From assembly GCA_021806165.1 (NCBI GenBank), contig JAJZXY010000001.1, forward strand, positions 12,836 through 76,835: 64,000 bases of DNA. Reading direction: 5' to 3'. The notes beneath the pieces are model-generated. The model did no database searches. It had not been told where the DNA came from and was given only the letters and a program-made list of their open reading frames with translations. Of this stretch, positions 1 through 61,460 are shown piece after piece (position 1 is the stretch's first letter; each line of letters begins with the position of its first letter). The DNA comes from Thermoplasmata archaeon. GTDB taxonomy: Archaea; Thermoplasmatota; Thermoplasmata; Sysuiplasmatales; Sysuiplasmataceae. Position numbers and translations under genes: made by a program.

Positions 1-2
1 AA

Positions 3-560
3 GGTGCAGAGGACTGCCGTAGCTGCGGAGCAGCCAGGATGAGCAGGCTGAAGGTCGGGCCGGCTGACTTTGTCATGGCGGTGGTGGCATCCGGCAAGGC
101 TCCCTTTGTCCTCGGCGCTATGGAGCGTGCGAAGGGCCGCGGAGCGGGGACAGGTGCAATAGTCAACGTCAGGAATGCTGCCGTGTCACAGTACTGCGGC
201 TTCACCATTGAGCTACTTGTCGGTCCGGAGGTCATTGCCGGCTCGTCAAGGATGAAGGCCGGTATGGCGGAAAAGCTCGTGCTGAATATGATTTCCACCG
301 CCGCATTCGTCAGGCTCGGCAGGGTTTATGGCAACTTGATGGTCGGACTGAAACCGCTCAACAGCAAGATAAGGGAGAGGTCGGTTCGCATTCTTTCCAC
401 GATCACAGGCTCAACACATGATGAAGCCGAAGGGGCGCTCGCAGGTGCGGGCTGGGACATAAGGGTCGCATCGCTCATGCTGCTGAAGGGCCTGGAACCG
501 AAGGAGGCCCGGAGAAGGCTGGAGTCTGCGCAGTGGAGCCTCCGCGCAGCCCTTGGGTGA
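3..560 (+). CDS. murQ: N-acetylmuramic acid 6-phosphate etherase (MurQ), C-terminal part; gene continues upstream of window
   Basis: Frame is open to the window edge. The translation carries the SIS-domain MurQ signature (GAGTGAIVNV, GPEVIAGSSRMKAGMAEKLVLNMIS, GRVYGNLMVGLK). It is co-oriented and near-adjacent to a DUF871/MupG-like gene, as in bacterial murQ operons. Confidence 0.8.
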   Translation, partial: GAEDCRSCGAARMSRLKVGPADFVMAVVASGKAPFVLGAMERAKGRGAGTGAIVNVRNAAVSQYCGFTIELLVGPEVIAGSSRMKAGMAEKLVLNMISTAAFVRLGRVYGNLMVGLKPLNSKIRERSVRILSTITGSTHDEAEGALAGAGWDIRVASLMLLKGLEPKEARRRLESAQWSLRAALG

Positions 561-599
561 CGCTCTGCCTTTCAGGCGCCCTTTGCATGCTGAACCAGT

Positions 600-1691
600 C
601 TAGGGGTAGGGGACAAGCCTGAACTTCTGGAACGGGCGCAGCATTCCAACAAGGCTCCTGTCCTCCTCCAGCACCGTTCCGGTGACATTTATGCGACTGT
701 CTGCGGGCCTCTTCTCCAGCCACACATTGAGCTCCCCTGATCTCCTGAGGTTGTTGTTCCCCTCCCTGTAGTCCACGTTGTCCACGGTGACGGAGTAGGC
801 GGGCCTCTCGACACAGTTGCGCGGCTCTGCCATCCTGTGCAGCTCGTCGTCCTTGAACCTGAATGTGTGGCGCAGCGAGAGAAGCGTCCCCGGCCTGGCC
901 ATCCTTTCGCCTCCGAACATCTGCCACTTCTCATTTTCGGTGGCGCCCGCTTCAGGGACTGCCCTGATCCTGATGTATTCCCTGGATGCAACCTCAGCCA
1001 CGGCATCAAGGTCCCTGTCTGAGGCAAGGGGATCTCCAATGAGCACGGTGTCCATCCCGGGTATGGCGAATAGCTCCTCGGCCGCGCGCTCAGGCGACAT
1101 GTAGCGCTGCGACTCGACAGTAACCCTTGTATGGAGCGCGGATGAGTGCACGAAAGCAAACATGGGCACGCCGTGGGCTGCAAAGGCTGCAGTCTGCTCC
1201 TTCACGAAGTCAAGCGAGATGCCCGACTCGAACCTGGGGTGGTAGTTGAAGCTTGCCTGCATGACCGACGCATCTGCGCCGTGCCTGAACATCTCGTCAA
1301 GGTCGGAAGAGTAGTAATGGCTGCCGTTGATCTCAATCTTCATCCCCGCGCTGTTGTGCGTGATTTCGGCAGCCTCCCTGTTGGAGAAGCCGTCGTCCAG
1401 CCTGAGGGCGGTGACGCCGGCATCCCTGAACGGGGAGAGGTCTTCGAGCGTCGCATGGAAGATCTCCAGGGCCTTAGGCGAAATGTCCGTTACTATCTCC
1501 ATGCCGAGCTCCTTTGCCCTCTTTGCCACCACCGGCATCTCGGCGCTCACCCTTGCAGGATCTGAACCGGGACGCTGCATGCTTGTGAATATCCTCCTGT
1601 AACCCTTCGACGCAGCCTTCTCAATGTATGCAATGTTCTCCTCGACCGTGCTCTCCATTCCCGTGAATATCGAAATTCCTGTGTTTCTCAT
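600..1691 (-). CDS. DUF871 family protein, 6-phospho-N-acetylmuramidase (MupG)-like
   Basis: The N-terminus MRNTGISIFTGMESTVEENIAYIEKAASKGYRRIFTSMQ matches the DUF871/MupG family start (GISIYP...E...YI..A...GF.RIFTSL). It is about 360 aa and sits next to murQ. Confidence 0.65.
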   Translation of the reverse strand: MRNTGISIFTGMESTVEENIAYIEKAASKGYRRIFTSMQRPGSDPARVSAEMPVVAKRAKELGMEIVTDISPKALEIFHATLEDLSPFRDAGVTALRLDDGFSNREAAEITHNSAGMKIEINGSHYYSSDLDEMFRHGADASVMQASFNYHPRFESGISLDFVKEQTAAFAAHGVPMFAFVHSSALHTRVTVESQRYMSPERAAEELFAIPGMDTVLIGDPLASDRDLDAVAEVASREYIRIRAVPEAGATENEKWQMFGGERMARPGTLLSLRHTFRFKDDELHRMAEPRNCVERPAYSVTVDNVDYREGNNNLRRSGELNVWLEKRPADSRINVTGTVLEEDRSLVGMLRPFQKFRLVPYP

Positions 1692-1703
1692 ACAAACACC
1701 CCT

Positions 1704-2714
1704 TTATTCTCCGGCCGGAAGCGCCCTCAGCTCGTGCGAGCCGTCCGACCTTGTCGTTTCAAAATAGTAAATCAGCCTGCCCCTGTGCCTGACCATGTCA
1801 ACATACCTGACAGAGCGCCCACCCTCACCGGACAGGGCGGGCCCGTCTATGGAGAGCCGCTGGAAATTCCTCAGGTCTGAGGTTAGTGCGAGGCCGCACC
1901 TCTCCTCGTAGTTCTCATCAATTCCTGCCGAACCGTCGTAAAATGCAGCGAATCCCCACTCTGTCCTGGCAACTGAGCTTATGCGCGCAGTGCTTGAGTC
2001 CCAGCCAGTTCCCAGTCCGAGCACCTCTCCTTCCCATGAAAAGCGCAGCCCGTCAGCACTCAAAGCCAGACCGCTGTTTGATGTTGTGATGCCGGTTGCA
2101 AATGCGTCAGCCGTTTCGTGGAGTCCCTTCACATCCCTCTTGGGAAGCGGTGCGTAGCTCACGTACATCAGGTAATACCCGCCTGCCTTCAGTATGACCG
2201 GGTCCTTCACACCTGCGGCACCCGCATCGGATGCCTTGAGTACGTTGCGCCTGGATGCGACGTCGATGGACTCCACGCATTCCGACTCTGCAACATCGAT
2301 CTGCCACATGTTTGTCTGCGGGTTCACGTAGCTGAAATAGAACCTGAAGCCGCCATCGGAGGGAACAAGGCAGCTCCTTTCTATGGACGGTGAATTCCCC
2401 AGGCTTCCCTTCTCCAGTTCAAACACGTCCCTGAAAACCAGTCCGTCGGAGCTCCTGGCTATCCTGTTCATAACGCCCCTGCCCTCCCCGCGCGGCCTTC
2501 TGATGCGGTAGGTCAGGAAAACTTCGCCTTCAAATTCAGTTACGGACGGCGCCCCGGTCCAGTAGCCGGGGGCATTTCTTTCCGGTGACCTTACGAGAAC
2601 CGATTTCGAAATATCAAAACGGGGCAAAAATGGCAGATCTCTGGAATTTCTTTGCGACATTCTGTCAGCCATATGATTTACCGTACTTAATGCTAAGGCT
2701 GCTGGAAATTCCAT
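1704..2714 (-). CDS. beta-propeller glycoside-hydrolase-like protein (GH43/GH32/GH130-clan-like), function unassigned
   Basis: It has repeated blade-like segments (DGGFRFYFSYV, GGYYLMYVSYAP, WGFAAFYDGS). There is no signal peptide. An alternative start lies at M15 (about 2672). Confidence 0.35.
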   Translation of the reverse strand: MEFPAALALSTVNHMADRMSQRNSRDLPFLPRFDISKSVLVRSPERNAPGYWTGAPSVTEFEGEVFLTYRIRRPRGEGRGVMNRIARSSDGLVFRDVFELEKGSLGNSPSIERSCLVPSDGGFRFYFSYVNPQTNMWQIDVAESECVESIDVASRRNVLKASDAGAAGVKDPVILKAGGYYLMYVSYAPLPKRDVKGLHETADAFATGITTSNSGLALSADGLRFSWEGEVLGLGTGWDSSTARISSVARTEWGFAAFYDGSAGIDENYEERCGLALTSDLRNFQRLSIDGPALSGEGGRSVRYVDMVRHRGRLIYYFETTRSDGSHELRALPAGE

Positions 2715-2855
2715 TCACAGACCGAACACCTTCCACACCCTTCTCGCCTGCAGTGCGCTAATGCTCCCACCGCACGTTAACTGTGCTTCCTCCTGGATGA
2801 TGCGACGGTTAGGATTATTATTGCATTGGCGATAGCCCCCTCGGCGGCGAATCAG

Positions 2856-4319
2856 ATGAATACGATTGTGGTGGTCACAGACAGCCTGCGCGCGGACTAC
2901 CTGTCCTGCTACGGAAACAGCTGGATCAGTGCGGAGAGCATTGAGAAGTTCAGCAGGAAGGCGACTAAAATCACTCATGCCTACCCGGAGGGGCTGGCCA
3001 CCATTCCCGTAAGGACGGCGCTGCTGACCGGGCGGTATACTCTGCCGTTCAGGGGTTGGCAGGGACTTGAGCGTACGGACGTCCTCCTTCCAGAACTCCT
3101 CTGGGGAAAGGGAATACGCACAGCGCTGATATCGGACACCTACCACATGCACAAGCCCGGGATGGGCTTCGACCGTGGATTCGACGAGGTCAGGTGGATC
3201 AGGGGGCAGGAGTCGGACATGTTCGAGACTGGGGAAGTCCCTGCAGCGGACATAGGCAGGTTTGACAAGCCGCACCCCTCAGACCCCTCGCACGGCAGGC
3301 GGCTGGAGCAGTATTTCAAGAACATATCACGTTTCGACTGGAAGGATGAGAAGGAACATTTCGTTGCCCAGGTTTCGAGCGAGGCTGTCAGGTGGATTGA
3401 TGAGGAGTCGGACAAGGGAGACTTCTTCCTCTGGGTTGACAGTTTCGACCCGCATGAGCCTTGGGATCCGCCCGAGCCGTACTGGAGCATGTATGAGCAT
3501 GTCAAGGGAACTGCAGACGTCATCTCTCCCGTCTACGGCCCGGTTGACGGCTATCTGAGTGAGGATGAGCTTCAGCGCGTGAAATCACTCTACGCAGGAG
3601 AAATCACCATGGTCGACAAGTGGATCGGGAAGATATTCGACGCGATAGAGAGGAAGGGGCTGATGTCGGATACCATGGTCGTCTACCTGTCGGATCACGG
3701 TGAACCTCTGGGGGAGCATGGAATGGTTATGAAGGCAAGGCCATGGCCGTACGAGGAGTTGATTAGAATACCGCTGCTTGTTCACCATCCTGATGGCCCG
3801 ATGGACGGGAGGAGTGTAAAGGGAATGGTGCAGACATGCGATCTGATGCCCACAGTCCTCGACTTCTTTGGAATACCCGGCAAGCTTTCCGCAAACGGCG
3901 AGTCCCAGCCCCCGACACACGGTGAAAGCATGCTCCCGCTCCTTAGCGGAGAGAGCGAAACACTGAGGGATTATGCACTCAGCGGCTACTACAGGAAGTC
4001 ATGGTCAGTTACGGACGGCAGCTGGAAGTATGTCACCTATCTCGAGGAGGAGGCTACAAGGTACCTCGCATGCGACATAACGGAGCGCATGTCGTCTTCA
4101 GGGCGTGATGCAGTTGTCGACCACAGGCGCCCGGAGCTGTACAACCTTGCTGAAGACCCCGGGGAGAATGACAACCTGCTGATCAGGGGCGGCGGCAGTG
4201 CAGCCACCGTCGGCGACAGTCTCGAGCTCGTAATGAGACGCATGGTAGACTCCCTCCAGGCGTACGACAGGGCAGGAACCCCTCCCCATTTCGATTTCCT
4301 GGGCAGACTCATTCAGTGA
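2856..4319 (+). CDS. sulfatase-family (alkaline phosphatase superfamily) protein with Thr at the formylglycine position
   Basis: It shows the sulfatase fold signatures NTIVVVTDSLRAD, LLTGRY and LSDHGEPLGEHG. The canonical C/S-x-P-x-R motif reads T-I-P-V-R (about nt 3000-3014). The ATG at 2856 is preferred over the TTG at 2826 in the track. Confidence 0.7.
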   Translation: MNTIVVVTDSLRADYLSCYGNSWISAESIEKFSRKATKITHAYPEGLATIPVRTALLTGRYTLPFRGWQGLERTDVLLPELLWGKGIRTALISDTYHMHKPGMGFDRGFDEVRWIRGQESDMFETGEVPAADIGRFDKPHPSDPSHGRRLEQYFKNISRFDWKDEKEHFVAQVSSEAVRWIDEESDKGDFFLWVDSFDPHEPWDPPEPYWSMYEHVKGTADVISPVYGPVDGYLSEDELQRVKSLYAGEITMVDKWIGKIFDAIERKGLMSDTMVVYLSDHGEPLGEHGMVMKARPWPYEELIRIPLLVHHPDGPMDGRSVKGMVQTCDLMPTVLDFFGIPGKLSANGESQPPTHGESMLPLLSGESETLRDYALSGYYRKSWSVTDGSWKYVTYLEEEATRYLACDITERMSSSGRDAVVDHRRPELYNLAEDPGENDNLLIRGGGSAATVGDSLELVMRRMVDSLQAYDRAGTPPHFDFLGRLIQ

Positions 4320-4340
4320 GTGGTGCCGGGAGAGTCGGGC

Positions 4341-6257
4341 CTACTCGTCAGTGACATCGCCCTTGAATGTCTTCGGTATGACGAGTTCCTTCCTTCGAAT
4401 CTGGTATTTCGCCTTTGCAGACCTGTGGCTTTTCACGGCCACGTTTCCATCGAAGATATCGAGGGGCACAGAGCCCTCGCACTGCGCAGTCACTTCAATT
4501 CCGAGAATCCTGCAGGCTGCCGGGACCACGTCCGTGAGGAAGATCGGCCTCCTTCTCCTGTACCCCTTCCTGACCCCGTGACCCCTTGCAATGAATGTCG
4601 CGAAATTGGATGAGAATTCAGTTTCGGCGGTCGGAGGCTGTGAACCGTGGTTTGCACCGCCGGTCTTCCACACTATGCGCTTCTCGCCGAGCGTCACCAC
4701 CTCGCTGCCGCTCCAGACATATCCCCTGTCGAAGACAAGCACGATATCTCCCGTCCCGTCTCCGGCAACGCCGGCGACGCTTGCCTCCTCCTTCCTAAGC
4801 ACAGACGCGAAGGGGGAGAGGTCCGTGTCCGGATCCCTTACCGAGAGTATTGCACTGCGCACCTCCTCCCTGAATGCTGTGTAGTCGCCCTCCTCCACTA
4901 TTCCCTCGGGATCCCTCCCCTTCAGGCTTATGTATACATGAGACAGATTCACCACAACCCTAGAGGCGGCAAGGTCGACCTTCGGCGCCCCTCCCGCGAC
5001 GTCTATCTTCATCCACCCCTTCTCCATGAAAAGGTTGCAGAGCGACACCCTGTGGTGGTTGGGTATGTTGCCGTGGTCTGACACCACGACAAAAGCATCC
5101 TCAGGACCGGCGATGGCTAGCAGCTTCCCAGTGAGCTCATCTGCTAGCATGTAGCCCTCGCGAAGCATCTCCACCGCCTTCTCCTCATCAGCTCCTCCCC
5201 CGTAGTCGCCGCCTGTCCTGTCCGCCCGGCCAAGGAATGCGTGCTGCACCGAATCCACATAATGCCAGTGCAGGAAGAACATGGAAACGTCATATCCCTC
5301 CTCCATAAGCCTGAAGCAGCCTGCAATCCAGTCGAACTTGTACCTTGTCTCCTCCAGGAAAGTATCCCTGTCAACCAGGCCGTCCAGGTAGAGCTTTCCC
5401 ACGTCGTCGTTTATGTACGGGCCGAGCCTCCTGACCAGCTCCCTGCCCGTCTCCCCCGGCGAGCAGAAGTCGCTGTCAATGTATATGCTGCTCCTGTAGA
5501 TCCTTGTCACTCTTCCGTCTCCCCCGGGCGCTTTTGGAAGCAGCTTCCACCTGACTGAGGCCCTTCCCGATTCTAGATCGAAATGAAACCATCCGGACCA
5601 TTCACCTTCAGCAAGTTCCGCCTCCTGCCCGCCTGCCTCGATCCTGATCTTGCCTTCACCGTCCATCCTGCTGATCTTCGGGCTGATACCACCCTGGCCG
5701 TGGCTGAACGGCACATCCAGGCGGACTGTTCCGTTGCCATCCCACAGCCCCGCCCACTTCTCCCACCTGCTCTCCCTGCGCTTCTCCCCGGCGCCTATAA
5801 TGTAGACGCAGCATGTGGCAAGGCCAAAGTAATCTCTGTTTGGGCCGTAGAACCAGTCTACATGGTAGATGCCGTCCTGGTCCGAAGGATAGCCTATGTA
5901 GTTGAGCAGAACAGACTTCCTCCCCTGCCTAAGTCCCGCCTCCCAGAGGTACTCGGCCGTGCAGATGGTCGATGTCATGCACTCGTCGAAGTGGTCTTCT
6001 TCAATACCCTCTCCCGGAACGTGCGATCCCCAGAGGAATACGCCGTGCGTCCCCGACCGTGCACCCGTGGAAATGGTGGCCCAATTGGTCGGAGTGAAGA
6101 CAGGCAGGCTTGGTATCGCCTTTGACCATGCTCCATCGTTAATCAGTGCAGAAATGCTGGGCATCCTGCCCTCGGCGATAAACTTCTCCGCGATCTTTGG
6201 TGACATCCCGTCGATGCCTACAAGGTAGAGTTTCTTCCTGCTGCTCATGTGGTTCAA
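4341..6257 (-). CDS. type I phosphodiesterase / nucleotide pyrophosphatase (NPP) family protein, alkaline phosphatase superfamily
   Basis: LYLVGIDGMS and FTPTNWATISTGARSGTHGV resemble the NPP metal-site and Thr-nucleophile region. The protein is 638 aa with a long C-terminal extension. Confidence 0.6.
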   Translation of the reverse strand: MNHMSSRKKLYLVGIDGMSPKIAEKFIAEGRMPSISALINDGAWSKAIPSLPVFTPTNWATISTGARSGTHGVFLWGSHVPGEGIEEDHFDECMTSTICTAEYLWEAGLRQGRKSVLLNYIGYPSDQDGIYHVDWFYGPNRDYFGLATCCVYIIGAGEKRRESRWEKWAGLWDGNGTVRLDVPFSHGQGGISPKISRMDGEGKIRIEAGGQEAELAEGEWSGWFHFDLESGRASVRWKLLPKAPGGDGRVTRIYRSSIYIDSDFCSPGETGRELVRRLGPYINDDVGKLYLDGLVDRDTFLEETRYKFDWIAGCFRLMEEGYDVSMFFLHWHYVDSVQHAFLGRADRTGGDYGGGADEEKAVEMLREGYMLADELTGKLLAIAGPEDAFVVVSDHGNIPNHHRVSLCNLFMEKGWMKIDVAGGAPKVDLAASRVVVNLSHVYISLKGRDPEGIVEEGDYTAFREEVRSAILSVRDPDTDLSPFASVLRKEEASVAGVAGDGTGDIVLVFDRGYVWSGSEVVTLGEKRIVWKTGGANHGSQPPTAETEFSSNFATFIARGHGVRKGYRRRRPIFLTDVVPAACRILGIEVTAQCEGSVPLDIFDGNVAVKSHRSAKAKYQIRRKELVIPKTFKGDVTDE

Positions 6258-6359
6258 CGGGCTGGCGATGTTTTCTTCATAGTAAATGATTTCCAGCGGA
6301 CTCCCCGCCGCACTGGTAACTCATAATAGGAGGCTCCGTCCTCTGGGGGCACCACAGGG

Positions 6360-7988
6360 TTGAACATGACCATAAATGAAAACACTTCGGTAGAGCAGCT
6401 AGGAAAGCTTTTCCAGATATCGCTTCCCGCTGACAGGACGTCCGAATGGGCGAACATAATAAGGGAGGTTGTTCCGGGCAGCATCGTGATTCAGGGCGCC
6501 AACGTTTCCATTGCTTCTGACATAGCCGGATTCGCATGGCGAATACGCTCCATATGCCTGGACGCAGGCATCACCCGGGAGAGATTCCCGCTGATAGGCA
6601 TCACGCAGGAGGGCGGCTGGATCAGCAGGGTCACGGATATTGCAAACAGCCCCGGCAACATGGCACTCGGGGCGGCAGGCAGCGTCACCTCGACCTACGC
6701 CTCCTACCGCGCCATGGCCGAGGAGCTTAGGTCGCTTGGCATAGACTGGGACCTCGCCCCGGTTGTGGATGTGAATACGGAGCCGTCAAACCCTATAATA
6801 GGTGTCAGGTCCTTCGGTGACGATCCGAAGGCGGTATCAGCCCACTCGCTCGCGGCACTCGACGGCCTTGAGGACGGCGGACTGCTTTCGTGCGTGAAGC
6901 ACTTTCCGGGTCACGGGGCGACCAGCTCCGATTCGCACATCACCCTTCCGCGGCTTGATCTGTCCCTTGAAGAACTTGAGCGGTGCGACCTCCTTCCGTA
7001 CAGGGAGAGCATCAGACGGGGCTCAGATTCGATCATGATATCCCATGTTGCATTCCCGGCCATCGAGGGAAGGGGAAGGCTGCTTCCCGCCACCCTGTCG
7101 AAGAAGATCACAACGGGCCTGCTGCGGGAAAGGCTTGGCTATGACGGCCTCGTTGTAACGGATTCCCTCTCAATGTCAGCGGTAGCAGACAATTTCCCGG
7201 CTGAGTCTGTTCCAGTTTCAGCAATCGATGCGGGTGCAGACATACTCGAATGCGCCTCTCCTGAGATGTATATGGTGATGTTTCACTCCCTCCGCAGCGC
7301 AGTTGCGTCCGGAAGGGTGGGAGGTGAAAGGATAGCAAGGAGCATCCGGCGCTTTGACGACCTGAGGCGCACGCATGCAGCCCTGGGAAGGCGAAAGAGA
7401 GGCACAGCCAGATGGAGCAGGCAGGCGCGATACAGCGCAACGCGCGCCTCATTAGTTTCATCGGTAACCCTTGTGGGCAGGAGGATTCGCATGCCTCTTC
7501 TGAAAGGATGCGAGGCAGTGCATTCATTCTATTTCAGCAGGTCGGCAATGCTGGAGGACAGGGGTATCACCGAGGGCAGCAGCCCCCTGTCTCAGATATT
7601 CCGCGAATGGGGATTTACAGGGGGGCGCCACTTTACCGCTCCCAGGAACATTTCCTCCGCGCAGGCAGGGGAGATGTCGCAGCTCGCAGCGGCCCATGCG
7701 GGCAAGAATGATTTCCTGGTGGTGTTCACAAACGACGCACTCGCGTCAAAGCAGACAAAGGGGCGGCGCCCTCAGATAGATTTCACAATGCAGATTCATG
7801 AACTGATGGAGGGGAGGGTAGCGGCCGTGGGCACAGGCACACCATATGAGGCAGAGCTGCTGAAAGGTATCCCGTATGTCTGCGCCTACAGTTTCAGGAA
7901 GGAGGCGCTGTCTGCAGCCGTCGGAGTCCTTGCAGGCGGAATGGCTGCACAGGGGCGGCTGCCTGTGAAGATGCAGGGTGTACAGTGA
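6360..7988 (+). CDS. glycoside hydrolase family 3 beta-N-acetylhexosaminidase (NagZ-like) with C-terminal extension
   Basis: It carries the GH3 N-terminal domain motifs KHFPGHGATSSDSH and GLVVTDSLSM, plus PVVDVNTEPSNPIIGVRSFG. No signal peptide is present. Confidence 0.7.
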   Translation: MNMTINENTSVEQLGKLFQISLPADRTSEWANIIREVVPGSIVIQGANVSIASDIAGFAWRIRSICLDAGITRERFPLIGITQEGGWISRVTDIANSPGNMALGAAGSVTSTYASYRAMAEELRSLGIDWDLAPVVDVNTEPSNPIIGVRSFGDDPKAVSAHSLAALDGLEDGGLLSCVKHFPGHGATSSDSHITLPRLDLSLEELERCDLLPYRESIRRGSDSIMISHVAFPAIEGRGRLLPATLSKKITTGLLRERLGYDGLVVTDSLSMSAVADNFPAESVPVSAIDAGADILECASPEMYMVMFHSLRSAVASGRVGGERIARSIRRFDDLRRTHAALGRRKRGTARWSRQARYSATRASLVSSVTLVGRRIRMPLLKGCEAVHSFYFSRSAMLEDRGITEGSSPLSQIFREWGFTGGRHFTAPRNISSAQAGEMSQLAAAHAGKNDFLVVFTNDALASKQTKGRRPQIDFTMQIHELMEGRVAAVGTGTPYEAELLKGIPYVCAYSFRKEALSAAVGVLAGGMAAQGRLPVKMQGVQ

Positions 7989-8073
7989 GTCTTCGCGCAT
8001 CGCGCCAGTGAGGCAGCTGCAGTTTGACAGATGCCGCTGCGCGTCGAAATTCGATTTCGCCGTCAAAATACCG

Positions 8074-8090
8074 TTTTAGACAATATAAAA
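8074..8090 (+). promoter_or_regulatory. candidate archaeal TATA/BRE promoter upstream of the opp-like operon
   Basis: The AT-rich element ttttagacaatataaaa lies in an otherwise GC-rich intergenic region, about 85-100 bp upstream of the substrate-binding-protein start codon. Confidence 0.25.
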
Positions 8091-8172
8091 TTCACGATCA
8101 ATTGATATAGTAAATGAGTTTACCGGATACGGCGATTACCTGAATAAGAAATTTCTCGCATTCGTCGTCGTT

Positions 8173-9924
8173 GTGCTAATGCTGTCGACTGCCTTTTTTG
8201 TGTCGGCATCGGACCGGGCTACCGCCTCAACATCCACAACATCGACCTCAGGGACACTGACGGTCGGTATTGTTTCACCGGGGGCCATTACAAACCTGAA
8301 TCCTTGGCTAGCCGGTGGCCAGTCCGCTATAACAACCGATCAGCTGAGGGGACTCTTCTACATAACGCTGCTTCTGCAGGCGCCCAACGGGACGCTTATG
8401 CCGCAGCTCGCACAGTCGTGGAGCTCCAACGCCAACGCGACAGTATATACGTTTAACCTGAGACCGAACATGGAATGGTCAGACGGGACCCCGCTCAATG
8501 CAAGCGACGTTGTATTTTCATTCAATGTTCTGCTGCAGAACCCGCTCTTCGACACTCTGAACGGATTCCTGGTGGCATCTCTCATCAAGAAAGTGACGGC
8601 ACTGAACAGCACAGCCGTGCGGTTCACTCTCGTCCACCCGTTCTCCCCGTTCCTGCAGTACGCGGGCCTCGGCAAGTACATAGTGCCGGCCCATGTGTTC
8701 TCGCAGGTTTCCAACCTGTCCAACTACACAGGCTCTGCCAACCCGGTTAGCGATGGGCCGTACATGCTTGTCAACTGGAGCGCAGGTGCAACCGTGCTTC
8801 ACTACAAGGCAAACCCGCACTTCTACCTTGGAAAGCCAAAGATTGAAAACATAGCTGTCGAACTCCTGTCACCCACTGCAAACATACCCGCGCTTCTGCA
8901 GACCGGAGAGATAACGCTCGCACAGCCGACGCCAAGCCAGGTTGCGGGACTTAAGGGTCAGAGCAACATAGGTGTCTCATTCTCGCCGGGTGTATCCATC
9001 CTGAGCACATACTTCGATCCTGCCGGACTCCTCATGTTCGACGATGCGCTGTATCCGTACAACGTGACGCTCGTGAGGCAGGCAATTGCGACAAGCATCA
9101 ACAGGACGCAGATTGTGGATCTCGCACTCAACAGCTACGGAACCGCCGGAAGCCAGGGACAGCTGCCAACCTCGCTGACCCAGTGGATACCGCCCAACCT
9201 GCCCAACTACACGTTCAACCCAGCAAAGGCCAGGGCAATGCTGCAGTCAATCGGGTTCAAGAACGGAACTAACGGCTACCTGGAATTCCCGAACGGGACA
9301 GCCTGGCAGCCCCAGATAATGGACACGGGCGGCTCTGCCAGCAGCGTCGTCAGCGTCATAGTACAGAACCTGAAGGCAGCGGGCATTGATGCCTCGGAGT
9401 CAGTTGTGACGATTGGAAGCATAGTCAAGGGCCTCCAGTACGGCAACTTCGACATGATACTGCTGGGAACCAGCAGGCCACCGATACCCGACTTCGTCCT
9501 GGGCGTATTCGTGACGAACTCCGTGACACCTGTCGGCACACAGGAGCTGGATTACCACGGATGGGCCAGGTGGTCCAACGCGACAGTCTGGAACGACCTG
9601 AACCAGGCCAGGAATGTCAGCAGCTTCACACAGCAGTACAACCTGTATGCAAACGCGCAGCAGATCATGGCGCAGCAGGAACCGCTTGTGACCCTCTACT
9701 ACGCACAGAACATCTGGGCATACTCGAATGCTACGATACACGGCTGGTCCAAGGTGGCCCCTCAGGGATACCAGTTCCCGCAGGCACCGCTCCTGATGGC
9801 CCTTGGCGTGCCGTCCGCCAGCAGCGGCTCCCCCGTGAACACGACTTACCTCGTCATCGGAGTGATTGCGGTGCTCGCCATCATAGGCGTTGCCGTGTAC
9901 GCAGTCAGGAAACGTAAAGGGTAG
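8173..9924 (+). CDS. ABC transporter substrate-binding protein, family 5 (Opp/Dpp-type), archaeal lipid/TM-anchored glycoprotein
   Basis: It has an N-terminal signal-like hydrophobic segment followed by a Ser/Thr-rich linker (TASTSTTSTSGT). The body is SBP family 5 (oligopeptide/dipeptide-binding). Many N-x-S/T sequons are present. The C-terminal TM anchor is VIGVIAVLAIIGVAVYAVRKRKG. The first codon is GTG. Confidence 0.8.
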   Translation: MLMLSTAFFVSASDRATASTSTTSTSGTLTVGIVSPGAITNLNPWLAGGQSAITTDQLRGLFYITLLLQAPNGTLMPQLAQSWSSNANATVYTFNLRPNMEWSDGTPLNASDVVFSFNVLLQNPLFDTLNGFLVASLIKKVTALNSTAVRFTLVHPFSPFLQYAGLGKYIVPAHVFSQVSNLSNYTGSANPVSDGPYMLVNWSAGATVLHYKANPHFYLGKPKIENIAVELLSPTANIPALLQTGEITLAQPTPSQVAGLKGQSNIGVSFSPGVSILSTYFDPAGLLMFDDALYPYNVTLVRQAIATSINRTQIVDLALNSYGTAGSQGQLPTSLTQWIPPNLPNYTFNPAKARAMLQSIGFKNGTNGYLEFPNGTAWQPQIMDTGGSASSVVSVIVQNLKAAGIDASESVVTIGSIVKGLQYGNFDMILLGTSRPPIPDFVLGVFVTNSVTPVGTQELDYHGWARWSNATVWNDLNQARNVSSFTQQYNLYANAQQIMAQQEPLVTLYYAQNIWAYSNATIHGWSKVAPQGYQFPQAPLLMALGVPSASSGSPVNTTYLVIGVIAVLAIIGVAVYAVRKRKG

Positions 9925-9931
9925 ATTTCCG

Positions 9932-24883: not shown

Positions 24884-26776
24884 TCAGCTGCCCCTGGTAG
24901 ACAGGCGGTAATACACCAACGTCCCGTTCCTCGCAGTCAGTGAGTTGTTGACGGCAGCTTCCTTCAGGTAGTAGACTGTTGTCTCTCCTCCGGCTGTTGC
25001 AACGTCCTTCACCACCTTGGTCGTGTATGCATGGTTGTAGGAAAGGCTGCTTATCGAATTCTCGGGTGTCAGCGTCCCCACGAACAGGCCGTTGCCTTCG
25101 ACCTTTGTGTAGCTCCTGTTGTAAGAGTTCATGACTGAAGAGCCATGCTGCGTGTTCGTGTGCATCTTGACGCTCGTTGTGATGAGCCTAACCTGCGTCA
25201 CATTGAAGCCAATGACAATCTGGATAGGATTCGTCAGTATGACATCCTCAATTGCAGTGCCGTTTATCCTGTAGTAAGCATGGATCTTTGCAAGTGCGGT
25301 GGTTGTTGTTCCTTGAGACTTGAATGCACTGTAGTAGGTTGAATTGATGAACTCCCTCAGCGAGAATGTCTGTGAGTACACCAGCCCGGTCCCGTAAGGT
25401 GTGTTTGCTACTATGTTGAAACTCGGGTCATATTCGCTCGAATTGGCAAAGAACGCCACGCTCTGGGTATAGTAGGAGCTCATGCTCGTGGACCCGGCAG
25501 TCGACATTCCGAACGAATGCTGGAACTCCCTGACAGTCTGGCTGTCATTCAGGTAGGCAGCGCTGGCGGGAATGCTCTCTGTTGCCGTGTTTGTCTGAGG
25601 CGTCTGCACGTAGCTGCTGGAATAGCTGAACGTGTTGCTTTCCACCTGCCCGGCAACTGCACCGCCTGTGGTGTTGACCATGAAGTTCAGTGCCACCCTG
25701 ATCCAGAGGTTTTCATCATTGACAACCTGTATTGTGACACTCTGCTTCCCATGCAGGAGTGAGAGGTAGGGGTCGAGCGATATCCTGTGCGGAGGATAGA
25801 GCACTGCGCCAATACCCAGTACGGGCTGCCACAGGAAGAGGTCACCGCCTCCAGTCTGCACATTCGGGTAGGGCTGCACTGTTGCAACGAGCGTGCCGCC
25901 TATGAACACCCTGAACTCCCTGAAGGGGGGCTGCAGCGTATACCAGAATTCGTCATTTCCGTTCTGCTGCTCATAGAGGTTCATGTAGGCGTTCTTGACG
26001 CCGGTGGGGAACTGCACGGCTGTTGTCCGCGAGACGTTGAAGGGTATGGGCACATTGTTGGGGAAAGCATTGGAGGGGGTGGGGAAGTTTGTGGAGTTGA
26101 ACGCGGGTATTACCTGGCTGGGGAACTGTGCCGCAGGACCCTTCATTGTGAATGTGAACCATACAGAGAGGTAGGACGAGTATCCGGGGTTGAACTGGGG
26201 GCAGGTGGTGAACACGCTCTGCTGCCCTGTCAGTATGCTGGCGTACTGCGTCACGTTCTCAGTCACGCTGGTGTTCTCAAGCTCAACCGTGTTACCGGCA
26301 AGTATCTGGACATTGCTGACTGAGACAATGAAGCTTGTATCGAATGGGTTGGACACATACTGGTCAAAGAATGTGACAGTTATTGCAGAGAACCGCCCTG
26401 TGGGGAAGTCTACCTGCCTGGTTACGGATGACGTTGTGGTATGCGAGACAAAGAAGCTGTCCACTGCAACAACCACAGTCTTTCCACCGCCGCTCTGGGG
26501 TATGGGCGGCGCCATACTGCCCCTGACAGGATTGTCGCGGGCAAGGTTGCTTATCCTGCCCGCGTGAAAAGAGCTCCCCTGGGACACTGCCGCCTGAGCG
26601 GATAGGTCGGATATGCTCCCTGAGGATGCATAGGGTGTGGCCGAGGCTGCGGGCCCGGCTGCTGTCGAAACGCCTGCCGAAAGCGTTCCGGATAGCATAA
26701 GCACGGCAACTGCAACGGCAAAAGGCACAAGCAACTTACCAGTTCTGGATGGACCATTTACATCTGACAATTTCAT
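24884..26776 (-). CDS. large secreted surface glycoprotein (S-layer/cell-surface-like), very sequon-rich
   Basis: It has an N-terminal signal/TM (LLVPFAVAVAVLMLSGTLSA) and about 630 aa of Ser/Thr/Asn-rich beta-type sequence with dozens of N-x-S/T sequons. No enzymatic motifs were found. Confidence 0.5.
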   Translation of the reverse strand: MKLSDVNGPSRTGKLLVPFAVAVAVLMLSGTLSAGVSTAAGPAASATPYASSGSISDLSAQAAVSQGSSFHAGRISNLARDNPVRGSMAPPIPQSGGGKTVVVAVDSFFVSHTTTSSVTRQVDFPTGRFSAITVTFFDQYVSNPFDTSFIVSVSNVQILAGNTVELENTSVTENVTQYASILTGQQSVFTTCPQFNPGYSSYLSVWFTFTMKGPAAQFPSQVIPAFNSTNFPTPSNAFPNNVPIPFNVSRTTAVQFPTGVKNAYMNLYEQQNGNDEFWYTLQPPFREFRVFIGGTLVATVQPYPNVQTGGGDLFLWQPVLGIGAVLYPPHRISLDPYLSLLHGKQSVTIQVVNDENLWIRVALNFMVNTTGGAVAGQVESNTFSYSSSYVQTPQTNTATESIPASAAYLNDSQTVREFQHSFGMSTAGSTSMSSYYTQSVAFFANSSEYDPSFNIVANTPYGTGLVYSQTFSLREFINSTYYSAFKSQGTTTTALAKIHAYYRINGTAIEDVILTNPIQIVIGFNVTQVRLITTSVKMHTNTQHGSSVMNSYNRSYTKVEGNGLFVGTLTPENSISSLSYNHAYTTKVVKDVATAGGETTVYYLKEAAVNNSLTARNGTLVYYRLSTRGS

Positions 26777-26876
26777 ACCCCCTCTATAGTCAATGATGAC
26801 AAGTCTGCTATTCTAAACGAGTCTGCAAAGAGGTCCATGAAATAAAAAGATATCGTATTTCGGCGCACGGCCAACG

Positions 26877-32797: not shown

Positions 32798-33886
32798 TCA
32801 GATGCTTGTGAACTTCCTGGGCCCCGATGAAAAGTCGAACGCCTCAAGCAGTGGGTTGGCAGCCGCATCCCTGCCGGTCAGCGGTGTGAGGCCGTACCTG
32901 CTTTCTATGAACCTGAGTATGGACGTGTGGTCATTCACTGTGCTGTCCACCATTCCCTTCCTTGCATACGGGGATATGACAAGGCATGGAACCCTGAACC
33001 CGTAACCGTATTCATCCACCCGGGGTGGAGGGACATGGTCGTAGAAGCCGCCATAATCATCCCACGTCACAAATATTGCACACCTGTCCCAGTAGGGGCT
33101 GGCGCCCACGCTGTTTACTATGCTGTCCGCAACAGAGTCCTGCCCTTCGGCAACGTTCTTTGGGGGGTGCTCGTCCCCTCCAGGGGCACCGATCACCCAT
33201 GACACCTGCGGCAGCCTGCCGGCCGCCACATCCTTTGCAAATTCCTGGGCGGGGGCGAATCTGCCGCGAAGGCCAGCCTTCCTGATGTAGGAGAAGCTCT
33301 CGTACCATTTCGTAAAGCCGTATACCTTCCACGTTATGCCGGAGCTGTCAAGCTGTTCGAAAACAGGAGGGAAATCAATGACTTCGGGAACATTGTCGTC
33401 TTTCAGCCCTCCCGCAGTTCCTGCGACAAGGTAGAGGTGGTTCGGGGCGCTTTCGCTCATCACCGATGTGAAATACCTGTCGCACAGGACATATTCGCGC
33501 GCGGCGGCCCAGTAGCGCGGCAGGTCGGTGCCGTCAAAATAGCACATAGTCTGCGCGCTTCCCTCTGAGTAGATGAAACCGTCCATCCTGCCGCCGTCAT
33601 AGTCGGCGTGGGCGGCATTCCAGTTGTGGCTCATGTCCCTCGGCGTCAGCGTGCTGCTGTGGAAGGGTGCCCCGCACTCCGCCGATCCCTTTGCCAGGGG
33701 CAGGCATATGCTGCCGGATAATCCGTCCGCGCCGGGAAAGGCGCCGAAATAGTTGTCGAATGTATGGTTCTCCTGCAGCACCACGACTGTCCTGTCGATG
33801 TGTGACTGCCCGTCTGCGGCCGCCGAAGCCGCTGAATTCACAGCCGCCCTTCCCCCGGCAGAAACCCTCCCGGATGCGGAAGCCAT
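32798..33886 (-). CDS. phosphoesterase family protein (phospholipase C / acid phosphatase AcpA family)
   Basis: [15 protein letters not shown] is the hallmark N-terminal motif of the PLC/AcpA phosphoesterase family. An Ala/Ser-rich signal-like N-terminus is present. Confidence 0.7.
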
Positions 33887-61362: not shown

Positions 61363-61460
61363 GCGGGAGTAGCTAAGCTCGGCCAACAGCGCAGGACTTA
61401 AGATACGATTGAGAAATTCTGTCCCGCAGGGGTCCGTGGGTTCGAATCCCTCCTCCCGCA
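61363..61460 (+). tRNA. tRNA-Leu (anticodon UAA) with a 13-nt intron between positions 37 and 38
   Basis: Folded by hand. The acceptor is GCGGGAG/CTCCCGC (7/7 pairs). The D-arm is GCTA...CAGC with a GG loop. The anticodon stem is CAGGA/TTCTG (one G-U) and the loop is CTTAAG|A, anticodon TAA at about 61399-61401. The intron is ATACGATTGAGAA (about 61403-61415). The long variable arm CCC-GCAG-GGG marks a class II tRNA. The T-arm GTGGG-TTCGAAT-CCCTC has the GGTTCGAATCC consensus. The discriminator is A and CCA is not encoded. Confidence 0.8.

Follow-up and report, generated by a model that had tools for sequence, protein, structure and literature searches.

The 64-kb stretch of DNA from a Thermoplasmatota archaeon considered here (from contig JAJZXY010000001.1; the whole stretch is called the window) carries, at 2856-4319 on the forward strand, a gene for a sulfatase-fold protein in which Thr takes the place of the Cys or Ser precursor of formylglycine (FGly). 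This Thr-type protein is most likely not a FGly sulfatase; its conserved metal site, its Thr and general knowledge of the alkaline phosphatase superfamily make a phosphoesterase or a phosphotransferase the most plausible assignment. The open reading frame (ORF) is intact, starts with ATG and encodes 487 residues; an in-frame TTG lies upstream at 2826, and homologues begin at the ATG with M-N-x-I. Pfam assigned the protein to Sulfatase (PF00884, E 4e-40, residues 2-340) with a C-terminal SGSH_C domain (3e-10). The best NCBIfam model was the arylsulfatase PRK13759, matching over the full length with 3e-46 and far below its equivalog cutoff, while NCBIfam contains no model specific to the T-x-P-x-R clade described below. 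The N-terminus is itself beta-strand 1 (MNTIVVVTDS), without a signal peptide, a transmembrane segment or a hydrophobic N-terminal region, and the protein is predicted to be cytoplasmic.

The motif that replaces C/S-x-P-x-R reads T49-I-P51-V-R53 and is encoded at 3000-3014 (+) by ACC ATT CCC GTA AGG, with the Thr49 codon at 3000-3002 and the Arg53 codon at 3012-3014. HMMER alignments to the solved sulfatases 4upl (C-G-S-S-R) and 7oz8 placed Thr49 in the column of the FGly-precursor Cys or Ser, in agreement with the codons, so that the substitution reported in the preliminary description holds. Its further statement that FGly cannot form at this site was also supported, as according to the SulfAtlas paper Thr would be oxidized to a ketone, and no FGly derived from Thr has ever been observed (PMC5066984). 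Thr49 is instead the presumed nucleophile and a presumed metal ligand.

An error in the Thr codon is excluded by the invariance of this residue throughout a large clade. The preliminary description had named a miscalled codon (a true TGC or TCN) as one circumstance that would overturn it; such a sequencing or assembly error, or a pseudogene, was ruled out and is now a negligible prospect. A single substitution would turn ACC into TCC (Ser), but the ORF is intact, and Thr is likewise present in a protein of 97% identity from a separate, independent data set and in the other relatives. It was found in all 120 of the best homologues, which share 40-97% identity, come from independent samples in a collection of 5.8 billion proteins and have the consensus E-G-L-P-T-[LIV]-P-[TV]-R-T-A-x-[FW]-T-G around it. 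Clade members from 88 genomic loci carried Thr in 100 of 101 cases and Ser in the remaining one, and ~220 bacterial and archaeal relatives, down to 30% identity, have Thr at the nucleophile position.

The extent of the clade was estimated in two ways. A peptide-based scan (DPHEPWDP and a YAGE motif) of the GTDB species genomes confirmed at least 597 relatives, and 758 representatives at E <= 1e-30 emerged when 1.84 billion cluster representatives (50% identity) were searched exhaustively with HMMER. Thr is present in 123 of the 138 best full-length representatives and Cys in 14 (C-M-P-A-R-R), and a single degenerate one, P0152, reads P/A/H at catalytic sites. Hosts include Poribacteria, Planctomycetota, Armatimonadota, Chloroflexota, Desulfobacterota, Bathyarchaeia, Thermoprotei, Hadarchaeota and Brockarchaeota, among others; the Desulfobacterota comprise Bilophila wadsworthia ATCC 49260, Maridesulfovibrio and Mailhella, with copies that are often tandem paralogues. 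Judged by sequence, these proteins form a distinct clade that is marked by T-x-P-x-R together with D-x-F-D-P-H-E-P-W, has Asp in place of the sulfate-binding Lys and falls into ~750 clusters at 50% identity. The window protein contains the whole feature set (Thr49, Arg53, Ser/Thr10, Asp94, D-x-F-D-P-H-E-P-W, D-H-G and Lys293) and is an ordinary member. Searches of the PDB by sequence, profile and fold found no Thr-type relative, all matches being Cys/Ser enzymes at 17-21% identity. The clade is large, widespread and apparently unstudied, combining a nucleophile swap with a remodelled anion pocket on a well-known scaffold, while Thr-type PF00884 members as such are not new.

The residues that are invariant or nearly so in the clade comprise, in the N-terminal part, D9, S/T10, R12, D14, E45, T49, P51, R53, T58, G59, W68 and E80, followed by D94, H97, H99, R116, G117, D195, D198-P-H200-E-P-W203, Y246, D254, W256, D280-H281-G282 and K293. 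T49 and R53 are invariant, while P51 is conserved at ~90%, being replaced in ~10% of the Thr-type representatives and in none of the Cys-type ones. A metal site of the Asp/nucleophile/Asp/His kind known from phosphonate monoester hydrolases (PMHs) is present, with D9, T49, D280 and H281 all invariant. Asp9, the invariant first metal ligand and the equivalent of PAS Asp13, is encoded together with Ser10 at 2880-2885 (+); ligands 3 and 4, arranged as in PMH, SpAS2 and EfAS, lie in D280-H281-G, which with Lys293, the equivalent of PAS Lys375, spans 3693-3734 (+) and is likewise invariant. The clade signature D195-S-F-D-P-H200-E-P-W203 at 3438-3464 (+) is invariant or nearly so and contains His200, the equivalent of PAS His211. 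Since the metal ligands D9, D280 and H281 as well as R53, H200 and K293 are invariant, the active site is under strong purifying selection for catalysis, and the protein is probably an active enzyme.

Other parts of the sulfatase pocket are altered, and the preliminary view that every sulfatase hallmark is present was not borne out. Strictly, one of the five SulfAtlas S1 signatures was matched, namely Ca-binding 2 (DTMVVYLSDHG). Metal motif 2 (D-[NHQ]-G) is matched, and motif 1 (D-[DQ]) has its first residue, D9, followed by Ser10; at this position, the equivalent of PAS Asp14, the clade has S/T as opposed to D/Q in the aligned canonical Cys sulfatases. The C/S-x-P/A-x-R signature is missing, as the site reads T-I-P-V-R and the protein contains no C/S pattern elsewhere, while the context of FGly maturation is otherwise retained as T-x-P-x-R-x-x-x-x-T-G. 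The PS00149-type signature G-Y-x-[ST]-x3-G-K-...-[WY]-H is also lost, with Asp94 in the column of the Lys: the register reads G86-I-R-T-A-L-I-S-D94-T-Y-H97 in the window protein and G86-x-x-T-x3-S-D94-T-Y-H97 in the clade.

In the segment D94-T-Y-H97-M-H99, encoded at 3135-3152 (+), Asp94 is in register with PAS Lys113 and His97 with His115, and a multiple sequence alignment with canonical sulfatases has Lys at the column of the clade Asp94. HMMER alignments to 4upi and 5g2v agree with this register. Because the alignment to 7oz8, one of three, sets the gap differently, the correspondence of Asp94 to the sulfate-binding Lys113 is probable and not proven. Candidate roles for Asp94 are the binding of a second metal, general-base catalysis or a contact to an amino or ammonium group.

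An AlphaFold2 model built from a 46-sequence alignment reached a pLDDT of 89.9 and a pTM of 0.91. The best PDB fold matches found by Foldseek were all FGly enzymes, namely EfAS (9koq), BT1918_S1_46 (7oz8) and the S1_7 ulvan sulfatase 6hhm, followed by SpAS2 (4upl), SpAS1 (4upi) and the phosphonate monoester hydrolases 4uph, 2vqr and 2w8s, with TM scores of 0.63-0.69, identities of 17-21% and a Foldseek probability of 1.00 to S1 sulfatases. Because the best structural matches are arylsulfatases and PMHs, the model places the protein in the arylsulfatase/PMH branch and not in the LtaS/EptA or NPP branch.

The likeness is closest to the group of PMH, SpAS2 and EfAS (RlPMH 2vqr, BcPMH 2w8s, ArPMH 4uph, 4upl and 9koq; Foldseek E 1e-24 to 1e-26). 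Shared with this group are the two-domain sulfatase fold, the single-metal Asp/nucleophile/Asp/His site in place of an Asp/Asp/Asp/Asn Ca site, the Arg four residues past the nucleophile, the His of P-H-x-P and the conserved downstream Lys. The D/D/H ligand set has been described for EfAS, PMHs and SpAS2 (PMC12421950). They are likewise soluble enzymes without a signal peptide, and their promiscuous hydrolysis already extends to phosphodiesters and phosphonates. Unlike the window protein with its Thr49, they need FGly generated from Cys, their G-K-x-H Lys corresponds to Asp94, the identity is 17-21%, and the clade has invariant residues of its own (E45, W68, E80, R116, D195, D198, E201, W203, Y246, D254 and W256). 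The Mn-dependent EfAS was considered as a characterized relative and rejected, since it uses Cys61/FGly (PMC12421950).

Profile comparison gave its best PDB matches (E 2e-48 to 3e-43) with S1 carbohydrate sulfatases, including BT1918 (S1_46, 7oz8) and the S1_11 GlcNAc-6-sulfatases BT4656 and BT3177 (5g2v/7p24; GlcNAc, N-acetylglucosamine), with which the window protein shares PF00884 plus PF16347 and the genomic company of glycoside hydrolases and sugar importers. In contrast to these secreted enzymes, it is predicted to be cytoplasmic, and it lacks C/S-x-P-x-R, the Lys113 equivalent and D-[DQ], four of the five SulfAtlas S1 signatures failing.

The preliminary description had likened the protein to the known Thr-type members of the superfamily (NPP, EptA and LtaS), which did not hold beyond short local matches, the FGly arylsulfatases and PMHs being far closer. 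EptA/MCR, LtaS and YejM resemble the window protein in the Thr nucleophile, the sulfatase-type fold and a single metal held by an acidic residue, Thr, Asp and His, and their chemistry is phosphoryl (phosphodiester) transfer. They differ in being membrane-anchored transferases with another nucleophile motif, T-x-N-x-E; SulfAtlas lists Thr-containing PF00884 seeds with this motif as not being sulfatases (PMC5066984). Their models matched the window protein only locally around D-H-G (residues ~240-340, E 4e-8 to 1e-2). Membership among the Thr-type PF00884 transferases EptA/MCR, LtaS, OpgB and YejM was rejected, with 15-32 bits against cutoffs of 500-1250 and no N-terminal multi-pass membrane domain.

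NPPs (PF01663), one of which is encoded next to the Thr-type gene at 4341-6257, belong to the same superfamily and combine a Thr nucleophile with phosphodiesterase chemistry, but have a two-zinc core with Asp/His/His ligands where the window protein has Lys293 and His200 at sulfatase-type positions. PF01663 matched the window protein only locally (1.6e-7, residues 161-282), far more weakly than PF00884, and NPP membership was likewise rejected. In architecture the protein is most like PMH/SpAS2/EfAS and in nucleophile chemistry most like NPP/EptA/LtaS, and it is a member of neither group because the defining features fail. The Thr of the clade has arisen independently, within the arylsulfatase/PMH branch.

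The relation between Thr and Cys within the clade was examined through the 14 Cys-type representatives (P0153, P0161, P0178, P0204, P0205, P0220, P0227, P0228, P0242, P0243, P0246, P0253, P0258 and P0268). In a rough neighbour-joining tree they form a subclade nested in the Thr clade, with the motifs G-S-x-P-C-M-P-A-R-R, T-D-H-Y-H and D-x-F-D-P-H-E-P-F, and they share Asp94 and Ser/Thr10. These sequences suggest that Thr and Cys have been exchanged as nucleophile within one type of pocket. The canonical Cys sulfatases encoded in the same loci as Thr-type genes are distant paralogues with 22-28% identity, one of which adjoins a radical S-adenosylmethionine (SAM)/SPASM maturase; because they coexist with the Thr-type genes, Thr is no work-around for missing maturation. 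No recurrent gene for a radical-SAM maturase resembling the anaerobic sulfatase-maturating enzymes (anSMEs) was found within 7 kb of the Thr-type genes, and no maturase gene was found in the window.

The genes around the Thr-type gene point to amino-sugar metabolism. The window begins inside a gene for MurQ, the etherase of N-acetylmuramic acid 6-phosphate (MurNAc-6-P), at <1-560 (+; NF003915, 5e-57), followed by a MupG-like 6-phospho-N-acetylmuramidase at 600-1691 (-; PF19200, 6e-59, and PF05913) and a 336-residue protein at 1704-2714 (-) with no Pfam or NCBIfam match and a marginal similarity to GH43 arabinanases. A 40%-identical homologue of the latter lies at ~20474 of locus L020, from a Bacillota metagenome-assembled genome, with two Thr-type and two Cys-type sulfatase genes. 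The gene of the NPP-like protein (4341-6257, -; 638 residues, PF01663), for which no solved homologue was found by sequence, is convergent with the Thr-type gene. Further genes encode a NagZ-type GH3 beta-N-acetylhexosaminidase at 6360-7988 (+; PF00933, 9e-68; NF003740, 1e-43, below cutoff) with the motif KHFPGHG....DSH, a membrane-anchored SBP_5 protein plus an Opp-type ABC importer at 8173-13743 (+), an S12 D-peptidase/beta-lactamase-family protein at 13765-14811 (-) and a DUF3604 protein at 14816-16684 (-), again with no solved homologue by sequence.

Positions 1-16684 can therefore be read from the gene content as a bacterial-style cluster resembling those for muropeptide catabolism, in a Thermoplasmatota archaeon without peptidoglycan of its own. 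The profile matches for MurQ and MupG uphold the earlier placement of the Thr-type gene in a MurNAc-type cluster, and the adjoining NPP-like protein does have the NPP-style T-P-T-N-W...T-G...H-G motif with the Thr nucleophile that had been pointed out. MupG has been characterized, and archaeal MupG-like proteins were assumed in that work to have another function (PMC6262408). No sugar kinase or phosphotransferase system (PTS) is visible in the window cluster, though MupG and MurQ need 6-phosphorylated substrates; as the window starts inside MurQ, a kinase may lie just outside, upstream.

The link to MurNAc genes holds for the window and not for the close orthologues, where MurQ and MupG are not retained and adjacency to GH3 is what persists. 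Orthologues at 63-78% identity always lie beside a NagZ-type GH3 (loci L001, L089/L090 and L092), giving four independent orthologue contexts in addition to the window. The 76%-identical orthologue in L001 is also accompanied by an NPP-like copy 68% identical to that of the window and by a GH18-like gene; the same contig carries GatD/GatE. A clade-wide linkage to MurQ, MupG, the NPP-like gene or GH3 was rejected, as GH3 is retained only by orthologues at >=63% identity and the NPP-like gene only in L001.

In the wider clade the genes are found in varied sugar-utilization loci with GH127, GH2, GH38, GH123, PIG-L, GFO_IDH_MocA, AP_endonuc_2, ABC sugar importers, other sulfatases and DUF3604. In L003-L005 a DUF3604 gene at 11371-13317 overlaps the stop codon of the Thr-type gene, which suggests translational coupling, and DUF3604 is also near the Thr-type genes in L038 (~1559-3802) and in the window. 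Clustering of the neighbours at the 88 loci, which used crude ORF calls that also picked antisense ORFs in GC-rich loci, revealed lineage-specific partners only: a sigma-54 activator, a TRAP substrate-binding protein (SBP) and a thioredoxin-reductase-like protein in Desulfovibrionaceae, and GFO_IDH_MocA, an epimerase and an enolase-superfamily gene elsewhere.

The Desulfovibrionaceae also harbour a divergent Thr-type subclade (D-T-L-Q-F-N, Y-D-T-P-P-M-R-L-P), often in tandem, as in L063 (three copies), L082 (four copies), L073 and L075, and its neighbours are sigma-54 activators, a TRAP-type SBP and a thioredoxin-reductase-like flavoprotein. In the Bilophila loci L062/L066/L068 a large anion-permease-like membrane protein is encoded near the Thr-type gene.

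Taken together, the reading that we favour by a modest degree is a cytoplasmic, divalent-metal-dependent phospho(di)esterase on the arylsulfatase/PMH scaffold that acts on phosphate esters of imported amino-sugar fragments. A single metal held by Asp9, Thr49, Asp280 and His281 would lower the pKa of the Thr hydroxyl, and the Thr49 alkoxide would attack the phosphorus of a phosphate mono- or diester positioned by Arg53, His200, Lys293 and His97, forming a phospho-Thr (or phosphodiester-Thr) intermediate that is then hydrolysed by water. In the Thermoplasmatota archaeon and its relatives the enzyme may work together with the NagZ-type GH3. Its likely job would be to remove or cleave a phosphate ester on imported bacterial cell-wall fragments containing GlcNAc or MurNAc, because the gene sits with GH3, MurQ, MupG, the Opp-type importer and the D-peptidase. 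A candidate substrate is the GlcNAc-1-P-6-MurNAc phosphodiester that joins wall polymers to O-6 of MurNAc, cleavage of which could deliver MurNAc-6-P for MupG and MurQ without a PTS. A bolder version, to which little credence is given, holds that the switch from FGly to Thr turned a sulfatase/PMH scaffold into a dedicated phosphodiesterase with which the archaeon, perhaps together with the NPP-like enzyme, frees MurNAc-6-P from linkages of the teichoic-acid type; if true, a wall-less archaeon would be able to feed on Gram-positive cell walls without the need for a PTS or a kinase.

Several observations weigh against the phosphoesterase reading. With Asp in place of Lys at position 94, the pocket carries less positive charge than one would expect of a site for a phosphate dianion. 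The nested Cys subclade suggests that Thr and possibly a FGly-forming Cys can serve the same pocket, the best PDB profile matches are GlcNAc sulfatases, and the neighbours in the wider clade (GH127, GH2, GH38, GH123, PIG-L, heparinase-like proteins and sulfatases) resemble those of carbohydrate sulfatases. The literature search found no description of a T-x-P-x-R sulfatase-like clade, the closest published remark being that of SulfAtlas on the T-x-N-x-E seeds, and the substrate proposal, based on the gene neighbourhood only, is speculative.

The same facts bear on the improbable case that the protein is still a sulfatase, in which Thr49 would be oxidized to a ketone (2-amino-3-oxobutyrate) mimicking FGly, or sulfate esters would be cleaved by another route such as a metal-activated water. 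The retained maturation context, the C-M-P-A-R subclade with the same pocket residues, the sulfatase-like neighbourhoods and profile matches, and the many anaerobic hosts carrying radical-SAM maturases would all fit it, and anSMEs reportedly oxidize threonyl peptides to a ketone in vitro, a finding that the literature search did not confirm. On the other side stand the replacement of the sulfate-binding Lys by Asp, the loss of Pro51 in part of the Thr-type but none of the Cys-type representatives, the lack of a maturase gene recurring near Thr-type genes or present in the window, the SulfAtlas statement on Thr oxidation cited above and the disfavoured hydration of ketones, so that a ketone cofactor at Thr49 in particular is a very slim prospect. 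FGly allows sulfatases to break the sulfo-enzyme intermediate, its hydrate being needed to eliminate sulfate, and a sulfo-Thr intermediate would for this reason be a dead end. To our knowledge, the characterized superfamily members with a Ser or Thr nucleophile (alkaline phosphatase, NPP, PhnA, EptA/MCR, LtaS and phosphopentomutase) all transfer phosphoryl groups. The loss of the canonical nucleophile and of one sulfate-binding Lys could also indicate a catalytically dead relic with a binding or regulatory function only. This is highly improbable given that Thr49, Arg53, the other three metal ligands, His200 and Lys293 are invariant in hundreds of sequences from many phyla at 30-45% identity, and that decay as in P0152 was seen in one representative of 138.

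Phosphoryl chemistry need not be hydrolytic, and a phosphosugar mutase or phosphotransferase that works through phospho-Thr49, like phosphopentomutase or iPGM, is an unlikely but concrete alternative. Such an enzyme could interconvert GlcNAc-6-P and GlcNAc-1-P, a product that NagZ-type GH3 enzymes can form when they act as phosphorylases, or phosphorylate MurNAc-containing sugars without a PTS or kinase. Mutases with Thr or Ser exist in the alkaline phosphatase superfamily, and GH3 N-acetylglucosaminidases with His as the acid/base reportedly act as glycoside phosphorylases, which would fit the tight and repeated adjacency to a NagZ-type GH3 with an Asp-His dyad motif, the cytoplasmic location, and a cluster with no kinase or PTS whose MurQ and MupG need 6-phosphorylated substrates. 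However, the known mutases of the superfamily are built around a two-metal core, with a phosphotransferase or cap domain set apart from it, and show no specific similarity to the window protein, the closest structural relatives of which are all hydrolases; the wider clade is not linked to GH3, and a kinase may lie just beyond the window edge upstream of MurQ.

The phosphoesterase reading bears on how sulfatases are counted. In source databases, clade proteins, for instance those from Poribacteria, Planctomycetota, Bathyarchaeia and gut Desulfovibrionaceae such as Bilophila, bear the names 'sulfatase' or 'arylsulfatase A-like enzyme', and annotation and sulfatase censuses count such PF00884 proteins as sulfatases. 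Because a clade of ~750 clusters cannot make FGly, the sulfatase capacity predicted for sediments, sponges and guts probably includes a sizeable share of other activities, phosphate-ester hydrolysis being the likeliest. For enzymology, the clade offers a natural experiment in nucleophile exchange, with FGly/Cys and Thr both in one clade of the best-studied promiscuous scaffold and a Lys-to-Asp change in the anion pocket. For ecology, the window shows a bacterial-style cluster for muropeptide catabolism in a Thermoplasmatota archaeon, with no visible kinase or PTS for the phosphorylation step.

Some further features of the window were recorded. The 11-mer ATAGTAAATGA occurs at 6279-6289, in the divergent intergenic region between the NPP-like and GH3 genes, and at 8107-8117, upstream of the SBP_5 gene, with one-mismatch copies at 1764-1774 (~75 nt upstream of MupG) and 26786-26796 (10 nt from the start of a PNGase A-like gene). 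These four matches compare with 0.25 expected, and the element may belong to a regulon or promoter. As a shared operator of the cluster it was rejected, being absent upstream of the Thr-type gene and inconsistent in orientation. The PNGase A-like protein itself (24884-26776, -; PF12222, 4e-16) fits a lifestyle of glycan or glycoprotein scavenging. A PF04185 'Phosphoesterase family' protein of the phospholipase C/acid phosphatase AcpA type at 32798-33886 (-; E 8e-80) is the third predicted phosphoesterase in the window. Three features point to an uncultured Thermoplasmatota archaeon as the source of the window: GatD/GatE on the contig of the 76%-identical orthologue, a tRNA and a tRNA-guanine transglycosylase. 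The tRNA, at 61363-61460 (+), was detected by Rfam with 39.5 bits over 98 nt and not by ARAGORN in bacterial mode, and is for this reason probably an intron-containing archaeal tRNA. The transglycosylase, of the archaeosine type, is encoded in the window and has its best named relatives in Thermoplasmatota (54%) and Methanomassiliicoccales (50%).

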